NCBI GenBank assembly: GCA_963770565.1
Contig: CAVYQE010000006.1
Location: forward strand, 131,395 to 195,394
DNA from: an uncultured Actinomycetota bacterium
Lineage (GTDB): Bacteria; Actinomycetota; Actinomycetes; JAFAQI01
DNA length: 64,000 nucleotides
Direction: 5' to 3'
The number at the start of each line of letters is the position of its first letter. Position 1 is the first letter of the stretch. This document shows, piece after piece, positions 41,694 to 60,371 of the stretch. The translations under genes and the position numbers were made by a program. Under the pieces are notes generated by a model that saw only the letters and a list, made by a program, of their open reading frames with translations, searched no databases and was not told the origin of the DNA.

Positions 41694-41706
41694 GTCGCCA
41701 CCACGA

Positions 41707-41818: not shown

Positions 41819-41853
41819 CCCCATCCCCCGGACACAGTGGTATCGGGATACGG

Positions 41854-42381: not shown

Positions 42382-42504
42382 CCGAAGAGCGGCATCGCGG
42401 AGATCCGTCGACATCGTTGGGTGAGCGAGAACGGCACCTATCGCGCGGTACAGAAGCCGATTGGTGAGAGCCAACCTTCAGAGGCTTGACTACGTCACAC
42501 TGTC

Positions 42505-43110: not shown

Positions 43111-43159
43111 GCGATCCATACCGCGAGTTCGAGTGCTATGTATCGGCGCTTCGGCGTGC

Positions 43160-43579
43160 CTACCCAACGGGGCAGATCAGGACGACTCGCGCGACGTGAC
43201 CCGCCACCACGTTGACACGCTGGGGAGGCGTGGGCCCAACATGACACGGCAACTTCTTGAGCGCGATCGCGCTCAATGCGTAGCGACCGGGTCGGAGCGC
43301 GAAGTGGAACCTGCCGGTCGTGTCGGCGTGTGCGGAGGCGACGACGCGCCCGCCAATCGTGTGCAGCCTGACCGTAACCACGCCCGGTAGCGGGCCGCCC
43401 GAGCCACCATCCGGCCCGGCTCCCGCTCTGAAACTACCAACGACAGTGCCGAGCGCAGGGCTGGTTGGTTCGGCGACAGGGCTCGAAGCGGGCGCGGCTG
43501 CGTGAGTGCAACCAGCGACCAGCGCGGCCGCCGCTGTGGCGGACGCGGCCCATCCAACCCTCACTCGCATGGTCTTCAT
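43160..43579 (-). CDS. Lipoprotein with carboxypeptidase-regulatory-like (prealbumin-fold) domain
   Basis: LVAGC lipobox; ADTTGRFHFALRPGRYAL. Confidence 0.7.
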   Translation of the reverse strand: MKTMRVRVGWAASATAAAALVAGCTHAAAPASSPVAEPTSPALGTVVGSFRAGAGPDGGSGGPLPGVVTVRLHTIGGRVVASAHADTTGRFHFALRPGRYALSAIALKKLPCHVGPTPPQRVNVVAGHVARVVLICPVG

Positions 43580-43620
43580 GGTGATACGACGCCCCGTGCC
43601 GGTCAATCGTTCCCCAGCGG

Positions 43621-43648
43621 CGCGGACAGAACGCCGGTTATGGTCGCT
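43621..43648 (+). other. dif-like site (left of SIR2-like gene)
   Basis: CGCGGACAGAA-CGCCGG-TTATGGTCGCT. Confidence 0.55.
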
Positions 43649-43809
43649 TTCAGATCGGCGGCGGCCAACGGCTGAAGCCGGCCTGTGTCATTCCGTGGGG
43701 TCTGTCATGCTCGTCGATCTCCTCGTACCTGATGACGCTCCTGTGGGCCGGCACGCCAGAGCCGGCAAAGCAGCCGGGTCGCATTACCACCAAAAGAAAT
43801 GACTGGCCG

Positions 43810-45013
43810 TCAGGGCAGGTCGACGTGCTCGATTGGCTCCTCGGAGAAGTCGCCTACTTCAGGGTCGCGCTCCACCCATGGCGCTTTACCCGCCAAGACC
43901 AAGTCGATCGCTGCCTCACTCTCACCCGGCCGCGCCGAGAACAGACCCGAGAAGCAACTGCCAAGCAGCCTGTAGCGATTGAACTTCGAGGTAGGCCACA
44001 GCTGATCAACTGTGTGCTTGGCGGCATCCTCGCTTTCCGCAACGACCGTCACTGGGGTCGAGTGCCGGATCGTCTCGTGCAGGAGCCGCAAGAAATGACG
44101 CTCGGCTCCTCGCCATCCGATGACGAGAACCTCGGTAGCTTCCGCGATCGCGACCCTCATGTGCTCGATGTGGACCGCAGGTGCCTCGTATTCCTGCTTA
44201 TGGACGGTCGGGATCGCAAGCGCTGGAATCCATATCGCGGTACTTCCGCTTCGATCTGATGTATCGATTGGGCCTGCCCAATCCCGAATCGCATAGTGGT
44301 TCCTCACCGGTTGGATCGTCGCCAGCTAGACAATCAATCAATGTCGTTCTCGGCCTGCACGCCGCCGTCATCGCCGTAGGACCGGGCCGCTGCCAATCGT
44401 CGGAATGCACGGCTGCCTTGCGAAGCCAGTTCACCGATCCGTGTGGTTTGAAGAGTTGGGAGTCGGGCCGGGACGTGTAGTCCTCGATGGTGCCGAACCT
44501 GGCGTGCAGCACGTCCGTCAACGCGCGGTCGATCAGGGTGTCGTAGTTGAAGGTCACTATGCGGACTGGAGTTGCTCGGGCGGTCTCGTGGTAGTGGCGT
44601 GCGAGCCGGTCGATGAGCGTGAGGTAGTTGGTGACGTGATTGAGTTCCTCGCGCCAACGCTCCTCGACACCACCGATGGTCCAGCGCAGGTAGTACCGGA
44701 TGGCCGCGAGTTGAGCGTTGGCTTCCGAACCGAGGAATCGCTCGTCGCCGAGGCGCCCTAGACCGTCCTCGACCGAAATGCCCTCCTGTACCCAGGCGCG
44801 AAGACGGTCGACGGCCGGAGCGGCGCGCGGGTATCGAGCAATTGCCTCAAAGTACGGCGTTTCGGACGGATGCCACTCGAACAAATCCTTGGCTAAGGGT
44901 GGCCTGTAGTACTCGAAGTCTGCGCTGACGGCGTATCGCCCATTGCCTTCGATCGGGAACTCCCGGCCGCCGTCGTAAGAGGCTCCCGCACCTGCGATGA
45001 CGAGCAAAGTCAT
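43810..45013 (-). pseudogene. SIR2-like (SIR2_2) NADase-domain protein, split by one frameshift near 44260-44310
   Basis: VIAGAGASYD, IVTFNYDTLID, LFKPHGSVNW in ORF 44198-45013; IPALAIP and VLVIGWRG in ORF 43810-44307. Confidence 0.8.
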
Positions 45014-45213
45014 ACCGCAATCGTGTCACCCGGGGACGACACGTTCCGTCAGCTGAGCGCAGACGCGGCGGCGAGGTCACGCAGCCGAGGGTCGAGCGGC
45101 GGCGCCGGTTGTTGAGCGCACTTGAAGATCGGGGGTCGCTCGGCGCGGGATTGTGAACCGGTCGAACCGGCGCGGGTCTATGGAGTTGCCCCCGCCGTTA
45201 GCGTGTCGACCGA

Positions 45214-45241
45214 ACCGAACATAACCGGCGTTATTCGACGG
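45214..45241 (-). other. dif-like site (right of SIR2-like gene)
   Basis: Minus strand CCGTCGAATAA-CGCCGG-TTATGTTCGGT. Confidence 0.65.
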
Positions 45242-45275
45242 CCTGTCCGAGCCCTCTGGCTGCGAGGATGAGGTC

Positions 45276-45650
45276 ATGCCCCGTCTCACGGTCGTCACAT
45301 CGTTGTCGGATCGGGAGTTGAACGGGCCGACTGCTGAGGATGTCATTGCCGCTATCCAGGCACTGCACGGTGACGGCGAAGTCGGACTCGGAGAGCCCAC
45401 CTCCATCTGGCTTGGTATCGCCGGTGGCCCCGACCGCTACTTCGTCGCTTACGCAGACGCACACGCTGGACTGACCTTGCAGGCGCGGACCGAGACGACC
45501 GGCGGACAGCCCGTCGAGGCCCTCATTGGCGGCCAGTCGACGACATTGCCGCCCGCGTACCTCGTGTCCATCGACGTGGCAACGTCGGCGGCGCTGCACT
45601 TCCTGGAAACGCAGGAACCTGCACCGGCCGTCACGTGGGACCGGATGTAG
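45276..45650 (+). CDS. Imm1-like immunity protein
   Basis: IGGQSTTLP...VSIDVA..AALHFLETQEPAPAVTW C-terminal pattern, recalled from the Imm1 family. Confidence 0.65.
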   Translation: MPRLTVVTSLSDRELNGPTAEDVIAAIQALHGDGEVGLGEPTSIWLGIAGGPDRYFVAYADAHAGLTLQARTETTGGQPVEALIGGQSTTLPPAYLVSIDVATSAALHFLETQEPAPAVTWDRM

Positions 45651-45705
45651 GAGAAGTGCCTGTTCGCGATCGCGTTTCGCTTCGGAAAAGGGCAGGATCT
45701 ATCTC

Positions 45706-46044
45706 ATGCGCCCACTCTCCGAGGTCGAGCGTGAGGTCCTGAATGTGATGCTTGCTGGGGACTTCCCCGGCGCATTCGAGTTACGTGGCCAGGTGGACGC
45801 GGCACGCGTGTCGCGTCGATGCGATTGCGGCTGTCCGTCCGTCGACCTGGTGGTCGAGGGCGACGTTCCGCTAGCTCCCGTCGTGAGCCGCACGCCGGTC
45901 AATGCCAATGTCGATGGGGTTCTTGGGGGCGGGCTGATCGTCTTTGTCGATGATGGCCGGCTGTCGGGCTTGGAGTACTACACCTCCGAGGATCAGACAC
46001 CTGGCTCATTCCCCGACCTGGGTCAGATCCGGCCTTACTCCTAG
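45706..46044 (+). CDS. Small hypothetical protein with CxCGCPS motif
   Basis: MRPLSEVER...CDCGCPSVDL...IVFVDDGRLSGLEYY. Confidence 0.75.
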   Translation: MRPLSEVEREVLNVMLAGDFPGAFELRGQVDAARVSRRCDCGCPSVDLVVEGDVPLAPVVSRTPVNANVDGVLGGGLIVFVDDGRLSGLEYYTSEDQTPGSFPDLGQIRPYS

Positions 46045-46196
46045 CAGCGCCGAAGTGCCGTTCCGCGACGTACAGTCTCGGCGCTACGTCACATCCCGTC
46101 GCTGGGCATTGTCGGAGCCGCAGAGGTCCGGACACGGCTTGGTTGGCCACGGTCGCGGATCGGGACGGGGCGCTTCCGGTTGAGTTGTCCTTTCTA

Positions 46197-47582
46197 CTAC
46201 CCGGATGCGGCGGTGCATTGCGTCCAAAGGGCGCTTTGGCTGCCGGGCTTGGCTGTGGAAACGCCCAGCGCGAGGACGGTCTGGTCGTTGGCGACGGTGA
46301 TCGCGGACAGACCGCCGGGCAGTGTGACCGGTGCTGAGTTCGCGGGCGTCGTCCAGGAGGTGCCGTCCCAGTGCATCAGGAGCGGGCCATGCTGGGAGCC
46401 AGCGACCCATAGGTCGCGATCGGTGACGGCGCTGAGGCCGTTCAGCGTCGCGGCGGTGGACAGGACGGTGTCCCATCGCGTTCCGTTCCATCGCATCACC
46501 GAACTCGGACCTTGCCCACCCCAGCGCGTTCCGTTGGGCGAGGTGGCCAGGGCGGGGCGACGGATCGCAAAGACGCTGCGTCCTGCGGAGGAGATGGCGT
46601 CCAGCGGGACGGAACCCGTCGGGGTTGGTTCGTCGACCCAGTTGTTGCCGGTCCACGTGCCGAACAACGCGCCGTCGAAGCTGAAGCTCTCGCCGCCACC
46701 GTGCAGGTGGCCGCCCACCGCCCACGGGAATCCGGTGGCAGGGTCAATCGCGACTGCGGTGAGCAGTGAGATGGAGCCGAGCCCGGACGTTGAGGAGGGC
46801 TCCGGAGCCGCGACACGAGTCCAAACCTGACCGTTCCAGTGCAAGAGACGGTTCACGTAGGTGGCGCCGTTCACAGACGCGTTGCCGACTGCCCACACGT
46901 CATCCGATGACGTACCGGCGACACCGACGAGGGTCTGTTCGTGGTGCCGGCCAGCATTGGCCAAGGCAGGGACCGGAGTAAGCGACCACGACACACCGTT
47001 CCAATGCTCAACCAGTGGCCCGTTGCGCATCGTCGGGGTCTCAGCTTCAACGCCGCCGACCGCCCATGCATCGGTCGAGCTAATGACCGTGATGTTGTAC
47101 AGCGACCCCGGTAAACGGTTCGGGTTCCCCACCGGCACGACCGTCCACGCCCGGCCGTCCCAATGCTCGATCAAGGGGTAAGGCACCTGGCGCGGTCCCG
47201 AACTGTAGGGCGAATCCACCCAACGCTCACCCACCGCCCAAACGTTGCTTGAGGAGGCCGCCCCGATCGCGAACAGGCGATGCTGGCGATCCCCAGCAGC
47301 GAACGGCTCCGGCGCGAAATGCCAACCCGATCGACACGCCACGATCGGCGGGGACACCTGGTGTGTTGGTCCTGGGTTGTCGCGGAGCGCCAGAGGCACG
47401 AGAACCACCGCGACCGCCGTAATGACAGCGGCGACCGCACAGACGGCGAGCGTCTGCTGTCGGCGCCCCCGCCCCCGCCCGCGGCTAGCAGCGACGATCC
47501 GCGCCATCGGATCGGGCCAGGTCGGCAGCGCCCAGTCGTCGTCGTGGAGGACCCGGCGAAGCCGGTCGTCGAGATCGGTCAC
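46197..47582 (-). CDS. Membrane-anchored beta-propeller protein, probable anti-sigma partner
   Basis: DLDDRLRRVL N-terminus, single TM, WAVG / HWNG repeats; coupled to sigma factor by ATGA overlap. Confidence 0.75.
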   Translation of the reverse strand: MTDLDDRLRRVLHDDDWALPTWPDPMARIVAASRGRGRGRRQQTLAVCAVAAVITAVAVVLVPLALRDNPGPTHQVSPPIVACRSGWHFAPEPFAAGDRQHRLFAIGAASSSNVWAVGERWVDSPYSSGPRQVPYPLIEHWDGRAWTVVPVGNPNRLPGSLYNITVISSTDAWAVGGVEAETPTMRNGPLVEHWNGVSWSLTPVPALANAGRHHEQTLVGVAGTSSDDVWAVGNASVNGATYVNRLLHWNGQVWTRVAAPEPSSTSGLGSISLLTAVAIDPATGFPWAVGGHLHGGGESFSFDGALFGTWTGNNWVDEPTPTGSVPLDAISSAGRSVFAIRRPALATSPNGTRWGGQGPSSVMRWNGTRWDTVLSTAATLNGLSAVTDRDLWVAGSQHGPLLMHWDGTSWTTPANSAPVTLPGGLSAITVANDQTVLALGVSTAKPGSQSALWTQCTAASG

Positions 47583-48106
47583 GGCAGTGCTCCTGTCAGA
47601 TCGTCGCCGGCGCCAGCGACAGGCGCGAGGACACGTTCCAGATGCGCGATCGCGCGGGATGCGTGGCTCTTCACCGTTCCGCGCGAGATGCCCATCACCG
47701 CCGCGATGTCCGCTTCGCTCAGGTCCGCGTAGAACCGCAGGACAATCACCGCTCGCTGCTTCGCGGGAAGGGTCGCCAGAGCCCGCACGATCGCGTCACG
47801 TTCATCCGACGCGCCACTCGGATCCTCAACAACCGACGCGACCACCGTCAGCGTCGATTCCTTGCCGCTCGATCGCCGCCACCAGGAGGCGTAAGAGTTC
47901 ACCATCACCCGGCGGACATACGCCGACAGGTCCTCGATCGCAGGACCGGAGCTGCGATGGGAGACCACCGACCACGTCTTCACGAGAGCCGTCTGAACCA
48001 GGTCCTCGGCCGTCGACGGGCTCCCCGTCAACACATGTCCGAAACGGAGGAGCGCAGGCAACGCCGCGCCCGCCCAGCGCGCAAACTCCACCTCGTCCTG
48101 CGCCAC
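47579..48106 (-). CDS. ECF RNA polymerase sigma factor (SigE-family)
   Basis: AEDLVQTAL, AYVRRVMVN, LPAKQRAVIVLRFY, GTVKSHASRA. Confidence 0.93.
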   Translation of the reverse strand: MAQDEVEFARWAGAALPALLRFGHVLTGSPSTAEDLVQTALVKTWSVVSHRSSGPAIEDLSAYVRRVMVNSYASWWRRSSGKESTLTVVASVVEDPSGASDERDAIVRALATLPAKQRAVIVLRFYADLSEADIAAVMGISRGTVKSHASRAIAHLERVLAPVAGAGDDLTGALP

Positions 48107-48403
48107 ACCCGCCTCCGATACCCCTTCACCTACGATGAGCCATCGGAGCGTCGAACGGTTGTCACACCCACCAAGATTTCTTCCAAAAGCGACACGTCCG
48201 CGCTGTCGTCAAAGGACGCGAAGCAGTCCTTCGATGCCTCTCGAGCATTGTTGTGACCGTCGGTTAAGTGCCGATATCGTCCGCGACGATGGTCGGCACC
48301 GTGCCGCAGAGGTGATGCCATAACGGAGCGGGGCCTCCCGCTCCTGTGAGTACCGCAGGAGACTGCGGTTGCTCATAAACCCACATGGTGAGGGAGGCCA
48401 CCA

Positions 48404-49450
48404 ATGAGTGACGGTATCGCTAGGAAGAAGCAGTTCGTCGGCGTCGACCTGCATCTGCACCGGTCGGTGATCGTGCGGATCGACAACCGCGGTCGCGAGC
48501 TCGAGTGCGTGCGGATCGACAACTCTGTGTCCGGCCTTGTCGCTGAAGTGGCGAAGGCTGGGCAGGGTGCGCCGGTCGCGATCGAGGCGACATATGGCTG
48601 GTACTGGGCGGTCGACGCGTTGCAGGCGAAGGGTTTCGAGGTGCATCTCGCGCACCCGTACGGGATGAAGCAGATGCGGAAGCGGCGCCGGGTGAAGACT
48701 GACCATGCGGATGCGCTGGAGTTGGCGCGGCTGATGCGGCTTGGTTCACTGCCGGAGGCCTACATCGCCCCGGTCGAGCTTCGGGAGCTGCGGGAGCTGG
48801 TCCGCCACCGCCAGCAGCTGACGAAGGTCGCGACCTCAACCAAGGGCGGGATCCGCGCCGGGTTGGCGAAGCACGGGATCCGTCTGCCGGTCAGCAAGCT
48901 GAACACGGTTGCTGGGTCGGATCTGCTCGATGAGCTACGGCTTCCGGGCTACTACGGGCAGCGGCTCGCCGCGCAACGCCGGATGATGATGCTCGTCGAA
49001 GACGAGCTGGCTCGGGTGGAGCGCGAGCTGGACCGTCGGTTGAAGACCGACCCGGACTACCGGCGGCTGCAGAGGATCAAAGGGATCGGTCCGATCCTCG
49101 CGGCGGTGTTCGTCGTCGAGATCGGTGATGTGAGCCGGTTCCGCAACGCGGCCGCGATCACCTGCTGGGCCGGGCTGACTCCACGGGTGCATGAGTCCGA
49201 CCGGCGCCGACACGACGGCTCGATCAGCAAGGAAGGCTGCGCCCTGGTCCGGTGGGCCGCAGTCGAATCGGTGCAACGCCAATGCGAACCAGTCATCCGA
49301 GCCGTCCGGGACGACATCCTCGCCCGCCGCGGGAAGAGAGCGAAGAACACCGCGAAAGTCGCCGCCGCCAGGCGGATGCTCGAGGTCGTCTACTACACGC
49401 TGCGTGACGGTGAGGCCCGTTGCCTGACCAAGCCGGTCGCCGCCGCGTGA
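48404..49450 (+). CDS. IS110 family transposase
   Basis: VGVDLH, IEATYGW, KTDHADA, IKGIGP, AGLTPRVHES. Confidence 0.95.
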   Translation: MSDGIARKKQFVGVDLHLHRSVIVRIDNRGRELECVRIDNSVSGLVAEVAKAGQGAPVAIEATYGWYWAVDALQAKGFEVHLAHPYGMKQMRKRRRVKTDHADALELARLMRLGSLPEAYIAPVELRELRELVRHRQQLTKVATSTKGGIRAGLAKHGIRLPVSKLNTVAGSDLLDELRLPGYYGQRLAAQRRMMMLVEDELARVERELDRRLKTDPDYRRLQRIKGIGPILAAVFVVEIGDVSRFRNAAAITCWAGLTPRVHESDRRRHDGSISKEGCALVRWAAVESVQRQCEPVIRAVRDDILARRGKRAKNTAKVAAARRMLEVVYYTLRDGEARCLTKPVAAA

Positions 49451-49815
49451 ACACCGTCAAGACTTCGTGCGGGTCGAAGTAGCGGCATGACCCACCCTCG
49501 GGTGCGGTCGACGAAGTGAATGACCCCACGACCCTGGAACCCAGGGACGCTCGCACGGCTTCATGCTGACCACCACGTCGCGAAGGGATGCCTGACAGCA
49601 AACTGGCTGTCGCCGAGCTCTGCCATTTCAAACTGAAGCCGAACCTGACAACCACATAGCGACGCCGGCAACACAGTCTGCGTCAACCACGAGACGGCCT
49701 CAACACCGTTCGTCCTCGCGCTCCGCGCTCCGGGCGCTGCGTGTTGACCCCGCCCCGCGATCGACGCCGCCCTTGATCTGCCGACCATCGCCGAAGAACG
49801 CTCAAAACAAACAGT
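49451..49815 (+). ncRNA. Candidate bridge/seekRNA in the IS110 right non-coding end
   Basis: ~380 bp structured non-coding end with AGCGGCAT (49481) and AGGGATGCC (49584), matching target and donor junction. Confidence 0.55.
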
Positions 49816-49870
49816 TGACGGCCCCACTCCGTTCAGGGATGCCGTTCTTCGATGGAGAGCCCTGGCGCTA

Positions 49871-50993
49871 GTGTCGCGCGTCATTAGTTCCTTTACATTG
49901 GGGTGAGTTCGCGTCATGCTGTGGCATGGCGCTGTTGACTGCAGGTGTGCAGATCCCTGAGGCGGACCGGGCGACGCTTCAGAGCTGGTCTCGGTCGACG
50001 TCGATCAAGGCCGGGCTGGTGACTCGGGCCAGGATCGTCCTTGCTGCCGGTGACGGCTTGGGCACGACCTCGATCGCTTCGAAGCTTGGGGTGTCCAGGC
50101 CGACGGTGATCCAGTGGCGTGAGCGGTATGCCGCCGAAGGCTTGGCCGGGCTGCAGGACGATCCGCGGTCGGGTCGGCCGAAGACGGTCGACGACGCGGC
50201 GATCCTGGCGATGACGCTCGACCCGCCGCCGGAGCGCCTTGGGGTGACGCACTGGTCCACCCGCCTGCTGGCGGCGGAGCTGAAGGTCGGCGATGCGACC
50301 GTGGCGCGGACGTGGCGCAAGTACTGCGTGCAGCCGTGGCGGCGCGGGACGTTCAAGTTCAGCACCGACCCTGAGTTGGTGGCGAAGGTCCACGACGTCG
50401 TCGGCCTCTACCTGAACCCGCCGGAGAAGGCAGTCGTGCTCTGCGTCGATGAGAAGAGCCAGATCCAGGCACTCGATCGGACCGCCCCGATCCTGCCGAT
50501 GCGCCCAGGGCTGCCGGAGAAGGCCACCCACGACTACAAGCGCAACGGCACCGCGACCTTGTTCGCCGCTCTAGAAGTCGCGACCGGCAAGGTCACCGAC
50601 GCCGTCTATGAACGGCACGGAAAAGCCGAGTTCCTCGCGTTCATGAAGCAGGTCGCGAAGGCCTACCCGCGACGTGAGCTCCACGTCGTGCTGGACAACT
50701 ACCACACCCACAAGCACACCGAAGTCCAAGCCTGGCTAGCGAAGAACCCTCGCGTCACCTTGCACTTCACACCCACATCGGGGTCGTGGATGAACATGGT
50801 CGAGATCTTTTTCGGGATCATCACCCGCCAAGCGATCCGGCGCGGCAGCTTCGCCAACGTCAAAGAACTCATGGTCGCGATCAGCCGCTTCATCGACGGC
50901 TGGAACAACCGCTGCCACCCATTCACCTGGACAAAAACGGCGGACGAGATCCTGCCTCACGCCACCCGTCAAGCAACTTCAGACGCGCGACAC
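49871..50993 (+). mobile_element. IS630-family element
   Basis: IRs CTAGTGTCGCGCGTC / GACGCGCGACACTAG with TA duplication in CTAG. Confidence 0.92.
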
Positions 50994-50996
50994 TAG
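49926..50996 (+). CDS. IS630 family transposase
   Basis: RSGRP, THWS, VDEKSQIQALDR, LDNYHTH, SWMNMVE. Confidence 0.95.
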   Translation: MALLTAGVQIPEADRATLQSWSRSTSIKAGLVTRARIVLAAGDGLGTTSIASKLGVSRPTVIQWRERYAAEGLAGLQDDPRSGRPKTVDDAAILAMTLDPPPERLGVTHWSTRLLAAELKVGDATVARTWRKYCVQPWRRGTFKFSTDPELVAKVHDVVGLYLNPPEKAVVLCVDEKSQIQALDRTAPILPMRPGLPEKATHDYKRNGTATLFAALEVATGKVTDAVYERHGKAEFLAFMKQVAKAYPRRELHVVLDNYHTHKHTEVQAWLAKNPRVTLHFTPTSGSWMNMVEIFFGIITRQAIRRGSFANVKELMVAISRFIDGWNNRCHPFTWTKTADEILPHATRQATSDARH

Positions 50997-51034
50997 TTGG
51001 CACATGCTGACTGTCGGTCGGGCAGAATCTACGT

Positions 51035-51520
51035 ATGGCCCTCGCCAAAGTGGCTGCAACGCTGAGGGTGGCTGGGGCGATGTCACTTCTGGTCGTGCTA
51101 GCGATAGCAGCGATCGTGGTTGGTGTGGTCTTCCTTGTCCGCGGACCGTTGCGGCACGCGAGCGACGTCGTGCCGTGCCTTGGCTGTGAAAGCCAGGCTC
51201 TCGTCGTGCAATCAAGCGCCAATAGCTGGGGTTCGCTCGCTGTCGTCCACTACGGCGCGGCGCTGCAAGGGCACTTGCGGTGCGTGATCCCTGCCAGGGA
51301 CGCGAACCCGAATGGCCGGTTCTACCCGGTCACTTGTCACGGGGTCACTCGAGCAGGCGTGCTCGTTGAACTCGACGGAACGCACGCTGGCATCGAGGGA
51401 AACGACTACGAGTATCTGTCCGGCCAGTGGACACTCGCTGTGGGATTTGTCAGCCATCAGCTGTCGTGCCTGCCCTCGAACTGGCACCATTCTCACAACT
51501 GCGAGCAGACACCCGGGTAG
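51035..51520 (+). CDS. Hypothetical membrane-anchored Cys-containing protein
   Basis: N-terminal TM; leaderless-type CAGAAT 6 nt upstream of ATG. Confidence 0.6.
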   Translation: MALAKVAATLRVAGAMSLLVVLAIAAIVVGVVFLVRGPLRHASDVVPCLGCESQALVVQSSANSWGSLAVVHYGAALQGHLRCVIPARDANPNGRFYPVTCHGVTRAGVLVELDGTHAGIEGNDYEYLSGQWTLAVGFVSHQLSCLPSNWHHSHNCEQTPG

Positions 51521-51632
51521 CCTCCTGACACAGCCCAGGCGGATCTAGCCGACCGGCAGACACCTCGTTTGTCAACGGGCAGAGGTGCCGCTCGCGAGCA
51601 GATTCTGACTGACGCAGGCGGGTGAGGCCAAG

Positions 51633-52421
51633 ATGCGACATGCTCTGGGAGTGAACGACGGACCGAGCGACCCTGAAGATGATGAGGTCGACCGTGTGGA
51701 GCGGTTCGTTTCCGAGGTCGTGGCCTGGGAGCTAGCGCTTGGCATGGGGATGGGCCGTGAACTTCGGGACATGCCTTCGTTGATCGCCGACGAGTTGATG
51801 CGATCGCGCGGCCTTGACATTCGGGGCACGGCCAGCCTGGAGGATTCTCCTGCTGAGGACGCGCTTCCCTGGCCCTGGCCTGTGGTGCGAAGGGTTACTC
51901 ATAACGAGGTGACCGACACTGCTCACGTCGAGCTGGGCAATTTCAACCATTCAGCGATGATGCCGTCCATCCCGCACCAGGTTCTCGAGTTTCGGACCCC
52001 GGACGCTGGCCGGATCCTAGTTCGCCTCGAAGACGGTGACCGGATCGGAAGGATCGAGATCTGGCCGGCGAGCAGGCTGCTGCCCCGCGACGTGTGGAGC
52101 GAGTTCACCGAAGAACTCGACACGGATGGAGAACCGGAAGGCGTGGTGGTACCGGACTCCGCCTTATTGGACCGCCCCCAGGTCCAGATCGATGTTCACG
52201 TCACCTTGCCAGACCGTGACGACCGGGTGGTCGAGCTCCGCGCTACCCACGACGAGGGCACCGACATACCCGCCAAGATCTACCGCGATGGTGACAGGCT
52301 GATGATCTCGATTCTCGGACAACCCGGCGGGACTCCGAGACAGTACACAGTCAATCAATTCCTCAGGGCGATCGTGCAGGCAACTGGCGTACTCACCGAA
52401 GCCCCAACGCCCAGCGCATAG
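51633..52421 (+). CDS. Hypothetical acidic protein
   Basis: ORF lies between two repeat sites; its TAG is inside the downstream site. Confidence 0.6.
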   Translation: MRHALGVNDGPSDPEDDEVDRVERFVSEVVAWELALGMGMGRELRDMPSLIADELMRSRGLDIRGTASLEDSPAEDALPWPWPVVRRVTHNEVTDTAHVELGNFNHSAMMPSIPHQVLEFRTPDAGRILVRLEDGDRIGRIEIWPASRLLPRDVWSEFTEELDTDGEPEGVVVPDSALLDRPQVQIDVHVTLPDRDDRVVELRATHDEGTDIPAKIYRDGDRLMISILGQPGGTPRQYTVNQFLRAIVQATGVLTEAPTPSA

Positions 52422-52483
52422 GTGCCGCTCCAGGCCAGTAAACCCGGCGTTCTTCAGGGCTGACTGATGGGATGATCGTTGGC

Positions 52484-52753
52484 GTGGCCGCCGAACTCCA
52501 CCGCTACTGGATAACCCTTGCTGACTCTGGCCGCGCCTCACCTTTGGGCTACGGCATAACTGCCTACGACGAGGCGGACGCACGGTCGATCTTGAGTTTC
52601 GTGGCCTTCGACGGCGAGGCGCCCGAGATCTCGGAAGTCAAAGTCGATGTGGACGTGCGGGATCTTGACCAAGGTCACGTCATCCCGAACATGAACCCGC
52701 CCAACTGGCGCGGCATCTGGTACCCGAAGGGCCTTGACCGCCACCGGCCTTAG
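52484..52753 (+). CDS. Small hypothetical protein
   Basis: LGYGITAYD...DVDVRDLDQGHVIPNM...RGIWYP; GATGAT 7 nt upstream of GTG. Confidence 0.75.
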   Translation: MAAELHRYWITLADSGRASPLGYGITAYDEADARSILSFVAFDGEAPEISEVKVDVDVRDLDQGHVIPNMNPPNWRGIWYPKGLDRHRP

Positions 52754-52798
52754 CCGCGCAGAGGTGCCGTTTACCTATGCCGACCGTCCGCCTGTCAA

Positions 52799-53262
52799 GG
52801 GTTTGTGTTCTTTTCGTTCTTGTTCTTCGGCGTCGTTCTCGCAGGCGCGTTCCTTCTGGCGGGCGGAAACGGGGTCAAGGTGGAGCGCCCTACTGGACGA
52901 ACGACCTTGACGCCGGCGCCGCCCACCAGATTCTTGTGCGCTGAGAAGAACGCCAGGTGTTTGTTCGTTAGCGCATGGCGTGTCCTCACCGGTCGTGGGT
53001 CTGATTGTGTCGACGGTTGACGGTGAGAGCGCCGCGGGCGCCCAGGCTTACCTTGGCGCGCGGGCGCGTGCTGCGCCCGGTCACAAGAGGAGTGATGGGG
53101 TGCCCCGCGACGGGCATGAGGGTGCGGCCGTTCAATCTAGTACGGGTCGTCCAGCCGGGGCTGGCGAACAACGGCATATTGGGAGCTGGTCGCACCGGTC
53201 CCTAAGGTCCTCGGTGGTGGGCTGGTAGGCGGACACGGTCACCGTCCCTCGTCGTTGGTTTG
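52799..53262 (-). ncRNA. Candidate bridge/seekRNA in the IS110 element 2 non-coding end
   Basis: ~490 bp non-coding end downstream of tnp; minus strand contains ATGCCGTT (53170-53177), resembling the target. Confidence 0.45.
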
Positions 53263-54294
53263 CTAGGTGGGAATCTCGATCCAGGCCTGGTCGCCGAGCG
53301 CACGTAGCCGGTGGTGACAGCGGCGTGCGAGTTTACGGGCGACCGACAGCCGCGCTCGACCGCCACCGATGCGATGAGCCAATCGCAGGTAGTAGCCGTT
53401 GTCCGGGCTGGTCTTCTTGTGGGCATGCAGCGCGCCCTCATAAAGCGCCCAGCGCAGCACTGGTGGTCCTTGGCGGGTGAGCCTCGGGCGGCCACGGTTC
53501 TTGCCGTCGGAGTCATAGACGGAGATGTCCAGTCCGGCGTGACGCACCGCTTGTCTAGACGCGGAGAACCGGCGGGTGTCGCCGAGTTCTTCCCAGACCA
53601 TCGTGGCGAGCAGCGCACCCAACCCGTACTCATGAGACAGCTCCCGCGGTCCGGGATGACGGCGACCAAACGCGGTGAGCTCCGCGCGCAGCGGCACCAG
53701 ATCGGCGTCGATCGCCGCGATCATCCGCACCGCCACGTCAACAGCCTGCGCGCCGGCCGGGGACAGGTCCGGATCGTCAAGCCCGATCTGCACCCGGTCT
53801 CCTCGCAACAGCTTGCCGTCAGGCTTGGGCACGCCCTGATGAAAGAAAGTGGCGTGGATCCGTTTCTGCCATGCCTGCTTGCCCTGGACCAAATCCAGAT
53901 ACAGCCGGACCTTCTCCCGGATCTCCAGGACCTGCCGCGGCGGGATCCACGAGTCGTGGATCTCACCCTTCTCCAGTTGCTCCCGAAGCTTGCGTGCATC
54001 GATCCGGTCGGTCTTCGCCCGCTGCTTACGGCTTCGTGCACCGGCCGCCTCGGCCGGATCAGCGACATGCACCTCGGCGCCAGCGGCGAGACATTCCTCC
54101 GCGATGAACCGCCAACCGGTGCAACCCTCCACCACCAGCTCGACCTTCTTCTCATCGAACTGAGCGAGCCACTTACGGAAACCGACCCGGTCCGCCGGGC
54201 TGATCCGACCCCGCCCAGACTCCCCGTTATCGCAGTCCACCCAATCGAAGGTGATCTGTTGCCGATGAATGTCCAACGCTCCTACGATCGCCAT
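53263..54294 (-). CDS. IS110 family transposase
   Basis: GALDIH, VEGCTGW, KTDRIDA, AGLDISVYDS; GGAGG RBS. Confidence 0.93.
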   Translation of the reverse strand: MAIVGALDIHRQQITFDWVDCDNGESGRGRISPADRVGFRKWLAQFDEKKVELVVEGCTGWRFIAEECLAAGAEVHVADPAEAAGARSRKQRAKTDRIDARKLREQLEKGEIHDSWIPPRQVLEIREKVRLYLDLVQGKQAWQKRIHATFFHQGVPKPDGKLLRGDRVQIGLDDPDLSPAGAQAVDVAVRMIAAIDADLVPLRAELTAFGRRHPGPRELSHEYGLGALLATMVWEELGDTRRFSASRQAVRHAGLDISVYDSDGKNRGRPRLTRQGPPVLRWALYEGALHAHKKTSPDNGYYLRLAHRIGGGRARLSVARKLARRCHHRLRALGDQAWIEIPT

Positions 54295-54423
54295 ACCCGG
54301 ACCTCCTCCAGCTCCTGTTCGAGAACTGCACCTAGCGCAGATCCTTCTCTGTGCGGAGGGGGTCCGGCATATGTCCGTTACTTCACATGGTTGACCCTGC
54401 AAACAATGCGTGAGTAGCGGCAC

Positions 54424-54744
54424 CTATTCGACGCCCTGCCAGGTGATCAGAACGGCGTTGCCGCTTCGGTCGGGTCGACGTAGCGCGGCGAGTGCAGCCG
54501 TGCGCGCCTCCTCCACGTCGTTGTTACCCGACGGTCGGTAGTCGCTCCATGCAGTCTCAAAGAAGTTGCCCTGGTCGTCGTATTCGCGCAGGTCGAGTCC
54601 CAGAACCACCAGACCCGTGTCGGCCAGCGCGTTGATCGCACGTTCGGCATTCTGCGCGTGCCACCAGACTTCGCCGTTGGCGTCCACGTTCGCGGCGGCG
54701 GCAACCTCGTGTGGAAGAGAAGCCAGATCGTCGACGGTGGACAC
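54424..54744 (-). CDS. Small hypothetical protein, Imm40-like by eye
   Basis: GEVWW...AINAL...VVLGLD pattern; TAGCGT 6 nt upstream of GTG. Confidence 0.6.
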   Translation of the reverse strand: MSTVDDLASLPHEVAAAANVDANGEVWWHAQNAERAINALADTGLVVLGLDLREYDDQGNFFETAWSDYRPSGNNDVEEARTAALAALRRPDRSGNAVLITWQGVE

Positions 54745-54785
54745 GAGTGCACGCTAACGCCGGGTCTCGCGTGCGCGAACGGCAC

Positions 54786-55004
54786 CTATTCGCTCGACGC
54801 ATCCTCGACCGCGACCACGTCCTCGGCGTCAAACGGGAGTTTCTCGAAGCCCGCAACCCGAATGATCTCGTGGCCCCACGCAACGGTCACATTGTCGAAC
54901 GTGCGGCCATCTGTGAGCGTGACCCTGATCGTCTGCGCTCCCATGTGAGTTTCTGGAAAACAACTCACCGCTTCGCCCAGATCCTGCGGCAGTCGATTGG
55001 TCAC
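54786..55004 (-). CDS. Small hypothetical protein (72 aa)
   Basis: PETHMGAQTIRVTLTDGR; TAG inside a repeat site; AATAGT 6 nt upstream of GTG. Confidence 0.65.
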   Translation of the reverse strand: MTNRLPQDLGEAVSCFPETHMGAQTIRVTLTDGRTFDNVTVAWGHEIIRVAGFEKLPFDAEDVVAVEDASSE

Positions 55005-55101
55005 GCCGTCACTATTGCGGATCTTGGCTTGTTGAGCCAATGCACGGTAGCGCCGGCTCGGCACGGATCGTTCGGGGCCGCTCCTGCGAACAGAGTGGAT
55101 C

Positions 55102-56847
55102 TTATTGTCCGTTGCCGTCCGTCCTGATCCACGCCGTTGGCAGTTCCCCATGAACGAGAAGCCCGTCGCCAACACGTAGGCGTCGTAGTAGGTCGGCCGG
55201 CGCGTACGGCACTGAGGTCGCGACCCGCTGCGCTTCCTGCCCGCCACCCGGATCAAGCAGCTGAGGACGCGTTAGGTCAGCACGGACGTGTTCGTTGCCA
55301 ACGAGAACGCTCAAGTAGTCGGTGGTCGTCGTGTCGGTCAGCCCACTGGGATAGAACAGCTTGCTTCGGTGGTTGGTCAGGACGCTGTCGGCATCACGGC
55401 CGTAGGCGGTGTCGAGCTGTGCCCGTGATTGCCACACGGTAACGAGTTGGATACCGGCCCCGCTGACGGTGGCTGCCCACTGCGGGAGCTTTGGTAGTGG
55501 CGTGTTGGCCGCTTCGTCGCAGACGACGAGCAGACGTGGGTCGAGCGGCGTGCCGCGACGGTTGTACGCCGAGAACGCGTCGCTGATCAGGTCGTGCAGG
55601 ACCGCAGCGAACACCAGGCCGATGCGGCTGTCGTCGCCGAGGGGCGCGACGAGGTAGAGCGTGTTGGTGCCGGCGAGCAGCCAGTCGAGGGTGAGCTGAC
55701 AGTCTTCCGCACTGTCGGCGATCACCGGATCAGCCCAGGGCCAGACGGCGTTGCGGGCGGTGGCGTAGACACTGCTGGTGGTGCGCGGGTCGCTGCTCCA
55801 CTGGCCATGCAACCAGCCTTGGACTTGGGTGGCGGCGAACGCGACCTGCGGATCATCGTGGTCGGTGAGCAGCCGGACCAATGGTGCAAGGGTGCCGCCG
55901 CTGCCGTCGCCGGGCCGGTCCAGGTCGAGTACCCACCGGACGACGTGACGCATCGTGTGGCCGTCGGTGTTGGCTGCGGTGTAGAGCATGCCGGCGAGGA
56001 GCTGTTCGGCTTGGCCCCGCCAGAACCGGTCACCGGCCGTGCTGTCGTCGGCTCCGGTGCGGGCGAGGATCGCGGCCGCGTTGACGGCACCGGACAGCGT
56101 GCGGGCGGCGCGTAGCGGGCTCCACGTGCTGGACGGGTAGCCAGTGACGCCGAGCGGGTCGAACACACGGACCTCGCCGATGCGCTGGCGGGCGTCAATG
56201 GTGGCGCGAAGCAGGTCGGCTTTGACGCTGGAGACGATCGCCGGGCCGGTCCAGGCGCTGACGCCAGTGATCAGGCCGGTGGTCTTGCCGGACTGGCTAG
56301 GTCCGAACACGGCGACGGCTCCGGCGACACCGCGTCGGCCGCGGTGGCTGGACGCTTCCGTGGACAGGTAGCCACGGCCGTGACGGGCGAGCACGAACCG
56401 GTTCGGTTCCGGGCGCCGGGCGTAGAGCGGGGTGAGGTCGCGGCGGGTGGCGAGCCGCGGTTGGGTCGGTACCCCGAGGCGGCGCCGCTTGTCGATCGGG
56501 ACCTGCCGGTTGCGACTCACCAACGACAGCACGGCGAACCCGGCAACGGTGAGTGCTGCGAGGACGAGCGCGGTGGCGATCCAGTACAGGACGGGCCCGG
56601 GCAGGTTTCCGCGTACCCGCACCGGCCAAGCGACAGCAGGGTCGCCGAAGTGGTGAACCAGCCTGGGCAGGGAGCGGACCGCGTCGACCGGGCTGGCGTG
56701 CAGCAGCCTCGCGCGGCCGAGCAGCGCGGCGAGGGTGCCGATCAGCCATTGCACGAGGCCGATCGCGAGGACCGCACCGAGGAGAAGCGCGATGGTTAGA
56801 TCGATCCCATCGGCGCCCCTGGACCGGTTGGCCGTGGAGCGGGTCAT
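55102..56847 (-). CDS. TraG/VirD4-family type IV coupling protein
   Basis: 2 TM, GPSQSGKT, SSVKAD, VFDP, WSPL, DEAAN, WQSRAQL. Confidence 0.9.
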   Translation of the reverse strand: MTRSTANRSRGADGIDLTIALLLGAVLAIGLVQWLIGTLAALLGRARLLHASPVDAVRSLPRLVHHFGDPAVAWPVRVRGNLPGPVLYWIATALVLAALTVAGFAVLSLVSRNRQVPIDKRRRLGVPTQPRLATRRDLTPLYARRPEPNRFVLARHGRGYLSTEASSHRGRRGVAGAVAVFGPSQSGKTTGLITGVSAWTGPAIVSSVKADLLRATIDARQRIGEVRVFDPLGVTGYPSSTWSPLRAARTLSGAVNAAAILARTGADDSTAGDRFWRGQAEQLLAGMLYTAANTDGHTMRHVVRWVLDLDRPGDGSGGTLAPLVRLLTDHDDPQVAFAATQVQGWLHGQWSSDPRTTSSVYATARNAVWPWADPVIADSAEDCQLTLDWLLAGTNTLYLVAPLGDDSRIGLVFAAVLHDLISDAFSAYNRRGTPLDPRLLVVCDEAANTPLPKLPQWAATVSGAGIQLVTVWQSRAQLDTAYGRDADSVLTNHRSKLFYPSGLTDTTTTDYLSVLVGNEHVRADLTRPQLLDPGGGQEAQRVATSVPYAPADLLRRLRVGDGLLVHGELPTAWIRTDGNGQ

Positions 56848-59232
56848 GCGATCTCGGGTGCGGCGAGGATGTCGATGGCGGCGGTTTTCGCTCGGCTGGT
56901 GTCGAGCGCGGCGATCACGTGGGCGAGGTCGTGGGTGCCGTCCTCGCCCACGTCGAGGCTGCTGGTGACGGCGTAGAGGTGGTTGTGCTGGCGGCCGCGG
57001 GTCAGTCCGGTGTAGCCGAGCTCGGCATACAGGGTGTCATCGCCGAGGAGCAGCGCGACGTCGCAGGTCAGTCCTTGCGTCTTATGGACGGTACGGGCGT
57101 AGGCGTGGCTCAGGTGGTCGGTGACGTAGTCCATCGGGACTTCGAGTTCACGGTCGCCGATCCGGACCCGGAGGGCGGGGTGGTCGGCCGCGATGCCGGT
57201 GATGACACCGAGGTCACCGTTGATCAGCCCGAGGTCGTAGCGGTTGCGGCCGGCGAGGACCGGTTCGCCGACGCAGATATCGGCGGTCGTCGACGAGGGC
57301 GACGAGCGGCCCAAGTTGCCCGGATGCTTCGAGGTGGTGGTGCGCGCGGCGGTTGAGATCGGCCGCGTCGGCGCGGCGGACGGCACCCATGACAACGTCC
57401 GAGCCTGCGTCGCGGTGGGTGAGCCAGTCGGTGACCATTTGGTCGCGGAGTGTGTCGCTGTTGGCCGCGACCGTGACCTTGCCGCCGCGGTCGAGATGCC
57501 GGACAGCGAACCGGGTGTGACCGTGGCGCAGCGCGGTCACGGCGAGTCGTTCCTCCGGGTCGTGCTGGCGGCGGTTGTCGACCAGCTCGACACGCGGGCC
57601 GCGGTTCGCAAGGGCGGTGAACAGGCCACCGGCTTCCACCGCGGGCAGTTGTTTGGGGTCACCGACCTGGATCAGCTTTGCGTCGGCGCGTGTGGTCTCG
57701 GTGGCGAGACTGGCCAGCAGCCGGGTGCCGAGCATGCCAGCCTCGTCCACGACTAGCACGTCACCGGGCCGTAGCCGGATCGTCCCGGTGGCTAGGGCCT
57801 GGTGGAGGGCGTGGGCGGTGGTGGCAGGGATGCCAGATCCGGCTTGCAGCTCGCGGGCGGCACGAGCCGCGGGTGCGGCGCCGATGACCCGGTGACCGGA
57901 TGATTCGAATGCGTCGCGCACGGCGTCGAGGGCGAACGTCTTGCCAGTACCGGCGTGCCCCACGACAACATCGATGCGCCGGCCGCTGCCGCATAGCGCC
58001 TCGACCATGCGTCGCTGCTCGGCGGACAGTGATGGACGGTCCGCGATGGCCGCGGTGACTGCCTGCGGGTCCGCGGTCAGCCGGGAGGCAGCTTGCTGCT
58101 CGGCGAGGGCGACGACGCGGGCTTCTAGCTCGAGGATCTCCGGCGTGGTCCACCGGTTCTCGCCGAGTGGGATCGCGAGGTCACCGGCGAGGTAGGCGTC
58201 GGCGCGGTCGAGGATGTCGGTGACGGTCGCGCCCTGCCGGGCGGCTCGGGCAACGGCACGGATCACATCGCCGCGGTCGTAGCTGGCATGCTCACTCGTC
58301 ACCGCGACAGCGACGTCCTCGTCGCCGGCCCGCAAGGTTGGGGTGCGAGGGACGCGGACCACATGGGAAAGGTCGAACCGGGCATCCAGCGCCCGAGAGC
58401 GCCACTCGGCCCGCAACTCGGTCTCGGAGACGCCCTTCGGTTTCGGTTTGCGGCTGGTGAGCGTGGCGATCCGGGCGGCGCGGCCGCCGTGCGCTCCGAG
58501 CCGGTCCATCTCTTCGACGATCTCGGCCCGGCGGCGGGAGAACGCGCGGCGCATCGCCGGGGAAATGCCGGCGATCTCGGCGACGCCGTGCCGGTCGATC
58601 TCGTCGAACACGACCCCGAGCCGCACGGTCAGCTCGCGGCGCAGCGCGGCTTGGAAGATCGCCTCGGCGGTGTACCGCTGGTCATAGAGCAGCCGGGCGT
58701 CCAACGCGGTACGCCGCCCGTCGGGGCCTTCGGCGACGTTGAACACGACCCAGTGCAGGTGGATGCCAGGGTCGCCCAGCCGGCTGGTCCGGTGCCGGAA
58801 CACCGCCCCGAGGAACCCCGTGCCGGGTTCGGTGCGCTCACCGGCGTGCCCGCGCCGGACCGCGCAGGCGGTCTGCTCGAGATAGATCTCGACCTGATCC
58901 CGTGCCGCGTACAGCGCGGCTTCGACCTCGGCGGCGTCATGCTCGGAGCCGAGCGCCCACAGCAGCGACACCGACTTCGACGGTGACAGGGTCAGGTCGA
59001 ACCCGGTCACTGTCGTGGCATGTTCGGTGAGCCGGCCACCGGCCGGGTGGTGGCCGGCGAACGCCGCGGCGAGCGCCTCCCGGCCGGCTGGACCGGTCAG
59101 CCCATCGGCCGCGGCGAGAGTCCCGACCCAGGCACCGGGCGCGGTCCCGGCCTCGGAGAGGTAGTCCTCGCGGCCGTCGATGACCTCGCGCTCGTAGTAG
59201 CCGAGGTTCTGGCACTTGCCGATCGACAGCAC
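56844..59232 (-). pseudogene. MobF (TrwC) relaxase-helicase with a single frameshift near 57280
   Basis: MLSIGK..YYE, DLTLSPSKS, HRTSRLGDPGIHLH, GHAGTGKT, DEAGM; C-terminal TVHKTQG in the next frame. Confidence 0.9.
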
Positions 59233-59347
59233 GAGGTGGCGTCCTCACCTTCAGGTGCATCGGTGTGGAGGTTGCTGATCTGTCCGGCGGTCACGCTGCG
59301 GGAGGGATCGAGAGGCCGCCGCGAGGCGGCCGGATGGGAGCCGCGGG

Positions 59348-59581
59348 TCAGGTTGCGGGCTGCGCCTCGGGGGCGGGCCGGCTGGGCAGGACGCGTTCGA
59401 TGAACGCGGCCAACGCCGCGCGCGGGACGCGTTTCTGGCAGCCGAACCACACGAACGGCAGCCCGGACTTGCCGCCCGACCGGTCGTATTCGACAGTGAG
59501 CTCATACACCTTCGACCGGCCCAGCTGCAGGACGGCCGCAGCCTGAGCCACCGTAAGGAACGGGGGGAGATCGTCTAGCAT
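59348..59581 (-). CDS. Excisionase / HTH_17 protein
   Basis: FLTVAQAAAVLQLGRSKVYEL...KRVP; GAGGTG RBS. Confidence 0.85.
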   Translation of the reverse strand: MLDDLPPFLTVAQAAAVLQLGRSKVYELTVEYDRSGGKSGLPFVWFGCQKRVPRAALAAFIERVLPSRPAPEAQPAT

Positions 59582-59672
59582 CACGTCACCTCGCTGTACT
59601 TCACAACCGTGGGGCAATGTCGCTATCATAACAACACGGTTGTCAAGTACAACGTGAACGAGTGGAGGATCT

Positions 59673-60371
59673 GTGGCGCGACGACGCGCACCCGAGAAGG
59701 ACGCACCGTCCAGCTCGCCCGGCGGCCTGGATGTGAACGCGGTCGTCTCCTACAACCTGCGCACCATCCGGCAACGGCAAGGCTGGACCCAGGAAGGTGT
59801 CGCGCAGCGGCTGGCGCAGCTGAGCGGGCACGAGTTGCCGCAGGCGTCGATCTCGGCGATGGAACGCGGTTTCGAAGGTGGCCGGCGCCGCCGCTTCGAC
59901 GCCCACGAGCTGTACCTGCTCTCCGTCGTGTTCGGCGTCCCGATCGTCTACTTCTTCATCCCGCCACCCACCGAGGAGCGCGAGGACCGCTCCCTCGCTG
60001 ACACCGGACAACCGGTCAGTGATCTCTACGCCGCGTTGCTGGGCGCGGACGACCAGCTCGCCGAAGTTGACCAGCGGCTCACGGACCTGGGCCGAACGAG
60101 TCCGGCCGAGGCCGAGATGACCCTGGCGCTCATCTACGGCCCCGAGGGCGGCCCGGTCCGTGACTGGTACGCCGCGTTCCGCACCTGGCGCAAGCGCCGA
60201 CTGCTCGCCCTCGCCCGCGACCACGGCGACCGGCTCGAGGACATCGCCGAGTTCCTCACCACCTTCGGCACCGAACTCAAAAACGTCGGACCCCAGGCCT
60301 ATCTACAGATGAAAGCGCACCGCGCCGGCGAAGACGTGCTGCCGGCAGCCATCGAACCCGAGGAGGGATAG
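59673..60371 (+). CDS. XRE-family HTH regulator, divergent from xis
   Basis: NLRTIRQRQGWTQEGVA...SISAMERG. Confidence 0.85.
   Translation: MARRRAPEKDAPSSSPGGLDVNAVVSYNLRTIRQRQGWTQEGVAQRLAQLSGHELPQASISAMERGFEGGRRRRFDAHELYLLSVVFGVPIVYFFIPPPTEEREDRSLADTGQPVSDLYAALLGADDQLAEVDQRLTDLGRTSPAEAEMTLALIYGPEGGPVRDWYAAFRTWRKRRLLALARDHGDRLEDIAEFLTTFGTELKNVGPQAYLQMKAHRAGEDVLPAAIEPEEG

Follow-up and report, generated by a model that had tools for sequence, protein, structure and literature searches.

Two IS1111-type elements of the IS110 family inserted into one short gene-end motif of an uncultured actinomycetotal genome, with predicted guide RNAs that match their targets

The DNA stretch analysed here (the window, 64,000 nucleotides (nt) forming the terminal 64 kb of contig C6 in assembly GCA_963770565.1 of an uncultured Actinomycetota bacterium) carries two insertion sequences (IS), element 1 and element 2. 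Both belong to the IS110 family, as an earlier note on this DNA had claimed, with PF01548 and PF02371 found above cut-off in the two transposases. The source genome consists of 11 contigs and 4.43 Mb, with 68-69% G+C, 94.9% completeness and 3.97% contamination. The two elements and their parts are located as follows.

48315..49841, plus strand: element 1, IS1111-type, IS110 family, 1527 bp, its position ambiguous by the 2-nt TG core
48404..49450, plus strand: element 1 transposase, 348 amino acids (PF01548 1.2e-20, PF02371 8.2e-21)
48310..48314, plus strand: left half of the element 1 target, AGGTG, with a copy of the TG core at 48313-48314 (comparison of three flanks, empty paralogue)
49842..49851, plus strand: right half of the element 1 target, CCGTTCTTCG (flank comparison, empty paralogue)
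48322..48335, plus strand: left sub-terminal inverted repeat AACGGAGCGGGGCC, partner at 49820-49833; an equivalent repeat was found in relatives by script
52771..54378, minus strand: element 2, IS1111-type, IS110 family, 1608 bp, with 1-nt ambiguity and ends common to metagenome relatives
53263..54294, minus strand: element 2 transposase, 343 amino acids (PF02371 1.1e-13, PF01548 3.9e-09)

The two elements are distantly related, their transposases sharing only 29% identity over 237 amino acids, and the closest annotated ones are IS110-family genes of Rhodococcus plasmids, with 49-51% identity. Both elements show the characters of the IS1111 group: DEDD and Transposase_20 domains; a non-coding region that is longer downstream of the transposase gene than upstream (391 versus 89 nt in element 1, 492 versus 84 nt in element 2); sub-terminal inverted repeats (14 bp with one mismatch, 7-8 nt inside the ends, in element 1; about 9 bp around TATGCCG, identified by eye, in element 2); insertion that is site- and orientation-specific, without a long target duplication; and a guide-like segment in which sequence and covariation indicate a match to both target strands, the top strand first. 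They are thus new members of a group whose mechanism is already known, and ISfinder-wide target lists could already include close relatives.

Both insertions lie in the motif A(G/A)GTGCCG(C/T)T. Element 1 is present in three copies with 99.7-100% identity (the window, C6:1772-3298 and C2:464806-466333, the last one frameshifted), whose flanks read xA(G/A)GTG|ATGCCATAACGG...TTCAGGGATG|CCGTTCT(T)CG, or in shorter form xAGGTG|ATGCC...GGGATG|CCGTTCT. At an empty site, 42430 (minus strand), the sequence leading up to and including AGGTG matches the left flank of the C2 copy without a single difference (365 of 365 bp) and is followed by CCGTTCTCG, while C2:887572 and C2:888545 are uninterrupted relatives of the site occupied at C6:1772. 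Twelve relatives from other genomes all have the form ..TG|ATGC(C/G)AT....ATG|.., and the TG core was found in 13 of the 13 two-ended elements. Taking into account this core and the empty sites, element 1 extends from 48315 to 49841, between AGGTG and CCGTT, and its removal restores an exact copy of the motif, ..AGAGGTGCCGTTCTTCG.., instead of the ..GGTGATGCCGTT.. given previously. The junction placed at GATGCC in the earlier note was therefore wrong by 3 bp, because the IS end happens to coincide there with the flank.

Further copies of element 2, which contain indels, are present on C2 (97%) and on C1 (96%). A natural empty site for its C2 copy was found at C6:6153, where AGAAGTGCCGT^TACTTCAC.. 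is uninterrupted and both flanks continue, which confirms the junction and the restored site proposed before. The window copy starts with ACGGACATATG (54375-54378, in IS orientation), and 14 relatives with GATGACATATG or a single-substitution variant of it; that is, ACGG stands where the others have GATG. These four odd bases are the first four of the right flank, and therefore the CCGTT direct repeat arises, which is seen in the window copy only. This left end may have arisen from a staggered or mismatched exchange.

It might be argued that the common target is only apparent, the ends having been set wrongly and the conserved bases being those of the IS, since the GATGCC repeat illustrates how easily ends are misplaced and the unusual left end of element 2 creates the CCGTT repeat. 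However, intact uninterrupted sites exist at 42430 in the window, C2:887572, C2:888545 and C6:6153, together with five more unoccupied copies of the motif in the window, and this explanation is considered extremely improbable.

The window contains six copies of AGGTGCCGYT, against 0.28 expected, and none of 100 shuffles reached six, in agreement with the clustering perceived earlier. Once the site interrupted by element 1 is added there are seven copies, which can be aligned as (G)CG(C/A)A(G/T)AGGTGCCG(C/T)T. Those not listed above are the following.

42430..42439, minus strand: unoccupied copy, the empty paralogue of the site that element 1 occupies on C2
51583..51592, plus strand: unoccupied copy AGGTGCCGCT, 62 nt after the stop of the open reading frame (ORF) 51035-51520
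52420..52429, plus strand: unoccupied copy overlapping the TAG stop of ORF 51633-52421
52762..52770, plus strand: part of the motif, AGGTGCCGT, directly adjoining element 2 and 9 nt past the stop of ORF 52472-52753
54379..54431, plus strand: remainder of the interrupted hairpin, ending in the converging copy 54416-54425 (minus strand), which overlaps the stop of ORF 54424-54744 (minus strand)
54778..54787, minus strand: unoccupied copy overlapping the TAG stop of ORF 54786-55256 (minus strand)

Thus, three copies (52420, 54425 and 54787, the last two on the minus strand) overlap the TAG stop of an ORF, one lies 9 nt past a stop and two more lie 55-62 nt past stops. The orientation of each copy matches that of its gene, so that the array converges around element 2. 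When element 2 is removed, its site forms the predicted hairpin with the converging copy, with a length of 56 nt and, under DNA parameters, -17.1 kcal/mol (z -3.45; 1 of 300 shuffles was as good), as had been anticipated. The hairpin of the empty C6 paralogue is weaker and marginal (-8.4 kcal/mol, z -1.39, 17 of 200 shuffles).

Relatives of element 2 were collected by a metagenome scan that gave 28 loci. Among its close relatives, the right flank was captured for ten independent insertions. Nine of these flanks carry the motif in reverse complement, starting with (A/G)CGGCAC (the window, C2 and C1 copies, L025, L026, L027, L029, L031 and L037), and the tenth, L030, starts with GCGGCCC; the distal flanks differ among all of them. 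The more distant relatives L033 and L038 occupy the sites GTGCCAGCT and GTGCCGTTCGG. For element 1, relatives came from a search of the whole class, in which 13 of 401 genomes matched at E 1e-70 (one of the 13 is unpublished, and its locus was left out of the analysis), from one locus of a metagenome-assembled genome and from G018; searches at the family and order levels gave few, because those genomes are fragmented. Five of the 13 two-ended elements of this lineage, from two families, are found at GTG|CCG(T/C/A)T (the window, G018, L058, L069 and L060), one is at GTG|CCAGT and seven are at unrelated sites, such as CTG|ACCTGCGG. This collection of copies and homologues, which the earlier note had proposed, upheld the motif for the element 2 lineage, and in the element 1 lineage for those five; the predicted guides of the other eight are re-programmed.

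Clustering could also result from regional preference or from rearrangement (copies of the IS recombining with each other, or strains assembled together) instead of from sequence targeting. The homology of a duplicated 1.2-kb block (42435-43645 and C2:463596-464805) ends exactly at the IS, and C6:1-8011 and C2:887658-894941, 96-97% paralogues, carry different IS, as this possibility would lead one to expect. Nevertheless, insertions in soil metagenomes and in other families, with unrelated distal flanks, hit the same bases, and a fourth right flank of element 1, CCGTTCTT.., is present in one soil contig, which makes an explanation of this kind very unlikely.

Downstream of each transposase gene lies a segment with the features expected of a guide.

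49464..49531, plus strand: predicted target-binding module of the element 1 guide RNA (RNAalifold over 12 relatives, 22 pairs, 8 compensatory)
49476-49487, plus strand: 5' loop strand GAAGUAGCGGCA, complementary to the core and right flank
49511-49518, plus strand: 3' loop strand ACGAAGUG, in the same sense as the left flank and core
49584..49592, plus strand: second guide-like segment AGGGAUGCC, identical to the right end of the IS and the two flank bases that follow it
53122..53194, minus strand: predicted target-binding module of the element 2 guide RNA (RNAalifold over 10 relatives, 38 pairs, 10 compensatory)
53180 to 53170, minus strand: 5' loop strand AAUAUGCCGUU, complementary to A|ACGGCA
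53140 to 53135, minus strand: 3' loop strand CUAGAU, containing the left-flank TA and the first 3 nt of the IS

In element 1, the first 160 nt past the stop codon, aligned over the 12 relatives, fold into an outer stem with the eight compensatory pairs, a 5' loop strand, an invariant inner hairpin and a 3' loop strand, in this order, the two loop strands forming an internal loop. The 5' loop strand, which ends in CA, pairs with TG and the right flank at 8.25 of 10 positions for cognate and 5.36 of 10 for non-cognate combinations, while the 3' loop strand agrees with the left flank and TG at 5.33 and 4.07 of 8 positions, respectively; for both strands the observed sums were reached by none of 10000 label permutations. 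The clearest case is L024, in which the target CGAACTG|GCACTACC is accompanied by the loop strands GGUAGUGCCA and CGAACUG. The second segment, CGAAGG(G/A)AUG plus 2-3 nt, follows in every relative the right end of the IS and the flank bases next to it, as in GGAAUGGC with a flank GC.. and GGGAUGAAU with a flank AAT...

In the relatives of element 2, the 5' loop strand reads AAU(A/G)UGCCGUU, complementary to A|ACGGCA(C), and in 11 of 12 cases the 3' strand (T/G)AGAU agrees with the two flank bases before the IS and the three bases with which the IS begins. In L033, whose flank is GTGCCAG and whose loop is CUGGCACU, flank and loop have changed together. Another stretch of the element 2 non-coding region, GAACGGC, was considered as a bottom-strand guide and discarded, as it belongs to the outer stem in the alignment fold and is compensatory in L033.

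In the distal non-coding region of element 1, CGAAGAACG (49792-49800) is a perfect 9-nt complement of the right flank CGTTCTTCG. This stretch lies outside the guide module and is not conserved as a guide in relatives; in G018, the corresponding position matches 7 nt of the flank, but in another part of it. A rough estimate of its occurrence by chance is about 0.1, and it may reflect chance or a second contact.

Published IS1111-type seekRNAs are described as encoded in the 3' non-coding region, with the match to the top strand located 5' of that to the bottom strand (PMC11187229), and bridge RNAs have been predicted at the right end of 93% of IS1111 elements (PMC11208160). The architecture and order observed here correspond to these, and a seekRNA-like guidance is therefore proposed by analogy. 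We hold it to be very probable that both elements are IS1111-type IS110 elements with a DEDD recombinase in which a 3' non-coding RNA would guide each one to overlapping parts of A(G/A)GTGCCG(C/T)T. According to this proposal, each recombinase gene would be followed by a non-coding RNA module with two stems around an internal loop, one strand of which would pair with the top strand of the target (core and right flank) while the other repeats the left flank and core. The RNA would thereby pair with both DNA strands of the site and, as with seekRNA or bridge RNA, direct the recombinase to insert the circularised element there. Element 1 would enter between GTG and CCG (TG core) in the orientation of the motif, and element 2 four bases further, after CCGT, in the opposite orientation, so that different guides would specify overlapping parts of the motif. 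The comparisons presented above demonstrate the boundaries, the target sites, the loop/target complementarity with its covariation and the covariation of the stems, from which, together with the analogy, we infer that the RNA would be made, bound by the recombinase and required. The earlier note, largely right apart from the displaced junction, had described the elements as programmed against this site family, a view that is well supported at the sequence level by the target sites and the covarying guide-like loops.

Several points weigh against this proposal. With an assembly of 11 contigs and 3.97% contamination, strains assembled together could account for some of the copies, which would then be allelic. 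Because the relatives are phylogenetically related, independence is overstated by the permutation counts, which are not true probabilities. In element 1, no more than 7 of 10 positions of the 5' loop strand match the three sites actually occupied, and this strand is better fitted by ..TGCCGCTACTTC, the sequence matching its guide perfectly being ..AAGTGCCGCTACTTC. In element 2, covariation comes from two divergent relatives, L033 and L038, and left-flank recognition comprises only 2-3 nt. Rfam 15 gave no match in 41000-56000 with E up to 1, no RNA sequencing run was listed as containing the region, and the guide RNAs of both elements are predicted from sequence and covariation.

The imperfect fit of element 1 to its own sites would also agree with recognition of the site by protein-DNA contacts or by DNA structure (a small hairpin whose loop is GTGCCG), with no guide and with loop matches as by-products. 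Several restored targets are indeed palindromic around the motif, for instance GCGCACC..GGTGCGC in L060 or the 56-nt hairpin of the window. This alternative is judged quite unlikely, taking into account that relatives with unrelated targets change their loops in step while compensatory changes keep the stems, and that the published IS1111 and IS110 elements described in PMC11187229 need RNA. IS1111 elements are also expected to have a circular intermediate with abutted ends. In Logan contigs of four soil runs, which cannot show rare forms, neither a joint of this kind nor one across either IS110 element was found; these runs yielded exact pieces of element 1 and of the neighbouring IS630-family element, and almost nothing from 51.1-54.6 kb.

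Among known systems, the IS1111-attC group (ISKpn4, ISPst6, ISPa25) resembles the present elements in its DEDD transposase, 3' non-coding guide RNA and sub-terminal repeats, as well as in its single insertion position within a short site after gene cassettes. Transposases of that group with 46% identity are reported to have one common target (PMC11187229). Here, in contrast, the target is not attC, the guides differ, the insertion points are 4 bp apart, the orientations are opposite and identity is 29%. ISPa11 is described as inserting into a repetitive extragenic palindromic (REP) sequence downstream of genes (PMC11187229), and ISPpu9 and ISPpu10 are likewise described with extragenic palindromic REP targets downstream of genes; REPs, however, are high-copy, whereas the motif has no genome-wide enrichment. 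In ISEc11 and ISXne4, the stems are preserved among close relatives whose loop bases differ along with the target (PMC11187229), as occurs here in E1w, L024, L059 and L070, although the present hosts are high-GC Actinomycetota and the targets are different.

The bridge RNA of IS621 likewise has an internal loop whose two strands read both target strands around a 2-nt core. In IS621 the RNA is located in the 5' end and the core is CT, whereas here it would be in the 3' end, with TG as the core of element 1 and a single A as that of element 2. The second segment of element 1, lying over the donor end and flank bases, is comparable to the published donor and handshake guides, and we infer by this analogy that it may have a handshake role.

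A further IS110-family element abuts the C1 copy of element 2 (G000 C1:~973050-974490, minus strand, locus L074/L075). It has a frameshifted transposase and a 5' non-coding region of about 230 nt (IS110 type), and together with four relatives (L076-L079, 74-79% amino acid identity) it shows the flanks xxxGTGCC|TGAT(A/G)GATGG...AGGCTTC|G(T/A)TC. Its restored site, ..GTGCC^G(T/A)TC.., would again be this motif, with an insertion point two bases away from that of either other element, and its non-coding region contains (N3)GTGCCUG and GAACGAAGC, matching both junctions. A 74% paralogue of one flank is uninterrupted in G110 (..GGCCGTTCGCG..); no true empty site was found for this third element, so its ends are putative.

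Between the two IS110 elements of the window there are three small ORFs without a Pfam family and the following element.

49866..50999, plus strand: IS630-family element with a DDE_3 transposase at 49926-50996 (Pfam), 24 bp past element 1

Copies of this element with 100% identity exist on C11, C1 and C2, and it is outside the proposed targeting mechanism. The genes to the right encode a type IV coupling protein (55102-56847, minus strand), a TrwC relaxase (57214-59232, minus strand) and a tyrosine recombinase (60372-61739), and those to the left include genes for an Imm1 immunity protein (45276-45650) and an extracytoplasmic function (ECF) sigma factor. Between 50.5 and 55.5 kb, most 500-bp windows have a lowered G+C of 0.61-0.63, which rises to 0.65-0.67 within element 2. 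Judged from these mobile-type genes and the lowered G+C, the setting has the appearance of a conjugative element's cargo region. The coupling-protein/relaxase region (55053-60731) has a second copy, 86% identical, at C2:759842-765512, followed by a 73% identical integrase; there are, therefore, either two related conjugative elements in this genome or two co-assembled strains.

Other repeats were observed in these surroundings. The 1.2-kb block mentioned above (99.7% identity between its two copies) has the motif at one end and a motif-like box, ..CCGGCG|TT.., in the same orientation at the other, and 80 bp away from its C2 copy there are pieces of a gene for a tyrosine recombinase (C2:463040-463515). 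Directly to the left of the element 1 site is a 32-nt hairpin, GTGCCGA..N..TCGGCAC (48268-48299), which recurs at C1:808585-808636 and C1:811673-811720, adjoining further motif copies. Another conserved hairpin, ..CACCTAT(T)AGTCTGCCGCC..GGCGGAC.., is found beside motif copies at C6:6215-6260 and C1:1556480-1556543 in this genome and at L032:~1340-1400 in a soil metagenome contig. A tandem array with a 7-bp unit is present at 41698-41829, with a longer relative at C1:407118-407422.

With regard to the nature of the motif, the earlier suggestion that such sites are abundant was not borne out. In the source genome, A[AG]GTGCCG[CT]T has 77 matches against 33-112 for five patterns of like composition, and the motif with an upstream A(G/T)A has 27 (eight of them on C6) against 2-30 for shuffled cores, which means no enrichment. 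The five element-carrying genomes have 33-46 motif matches against 26-33 for the reversed pattern, with no genome-wide excess. The 14-mer GCGCATASGTGCCG occurs at 77 places (one of them in an unpublished genome) in 63 of the 401 genomes of the class, against about 21 matches for a reversed control by our own count. In a genome of another family, G098, four motif copies lie on one strand within 2.3 kb, after small genes, and C2 has two tandem sites about 970 bp apart with a 51-bp right part in common. A second direct box, GGCGTT/GCCGCT, is found 24-50 nt downstream at several sites, and stems of 3-7 bp surround GTGCCG in some sites, though not all. Among seven ORFs beside sites in other genomes, none exceeded the cut-off or gave an informative family, and at the G098 loci the only family matches were RraB, GNAT, NUDIX, AlkZ-like and sulfate permease. 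The motif is a conserved, low-copy, locally clustered element, situated at or after the stop codons of small accessory genes across families of the class. It may be functional, as the earlier note had also suggested.

The analogy with integron attC sites drawn in the earlier note fails both by sequence and by structure. An attC site is defined as an imperfect palindrome, R''-L''...L'-R', with a GTTRRRY core and a single orientation along an array beside intI. No such core exists here, as after the G the sites read TTCTTCG, TTACTTC or CTCGCGA; the inverted partner is mostly absent, the long hairpin being formed by one pair only; and orientation follows each gene, flipping within the array, although no search aimed at IntI was made. 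PMC4889954 reports that no complete integrons were found in Actinobacteria. Nor does the motif have the copy number of REPs, of which tens to hundreds per genome are expected, as its counts show no excess in five genomes. Our working view is that mobile accessory genes carry it at their ends as a conserved element, where it serves as a harmless, recurrent landing site. Literature matches listed for the motif letters were unrelated and of the primer type, and nothing relevant was found among those listed for cassettes or immunity genes in Actinobacteria.

A more far-reaching idea, which we regard as doubtful, is that the extended motif GCGCATA(G/C)GTGCCG(T/C)TC marks the 3' boundary of mobile gene units and acts as a cassette recombination site, against which at least two, and probably three, independent IS110-family lineages would have evolved guides. 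If this were true, conjugative elements of Actinomycetota would carry cassettes of small orphan and immunity-like genes moved by an undescribed recombination system, and their attraction for the IS110 family would be comparable to that of integron attC for the IS1111-attC group. Independently of this, two, possibly three, natural insertion sequences with putative guide RNAs have been mapped in high-GC Actinomycetota with their ends, cores and guide/target pairs, and the family series in which guide and target change together provide raw material for the bridge-RNA and seekRNA field. Unrelated guides would converge on one ten-base motif, with insertion points staggered by two bases each, and this convergence would single out the motif as something that these elements can rely on finding.

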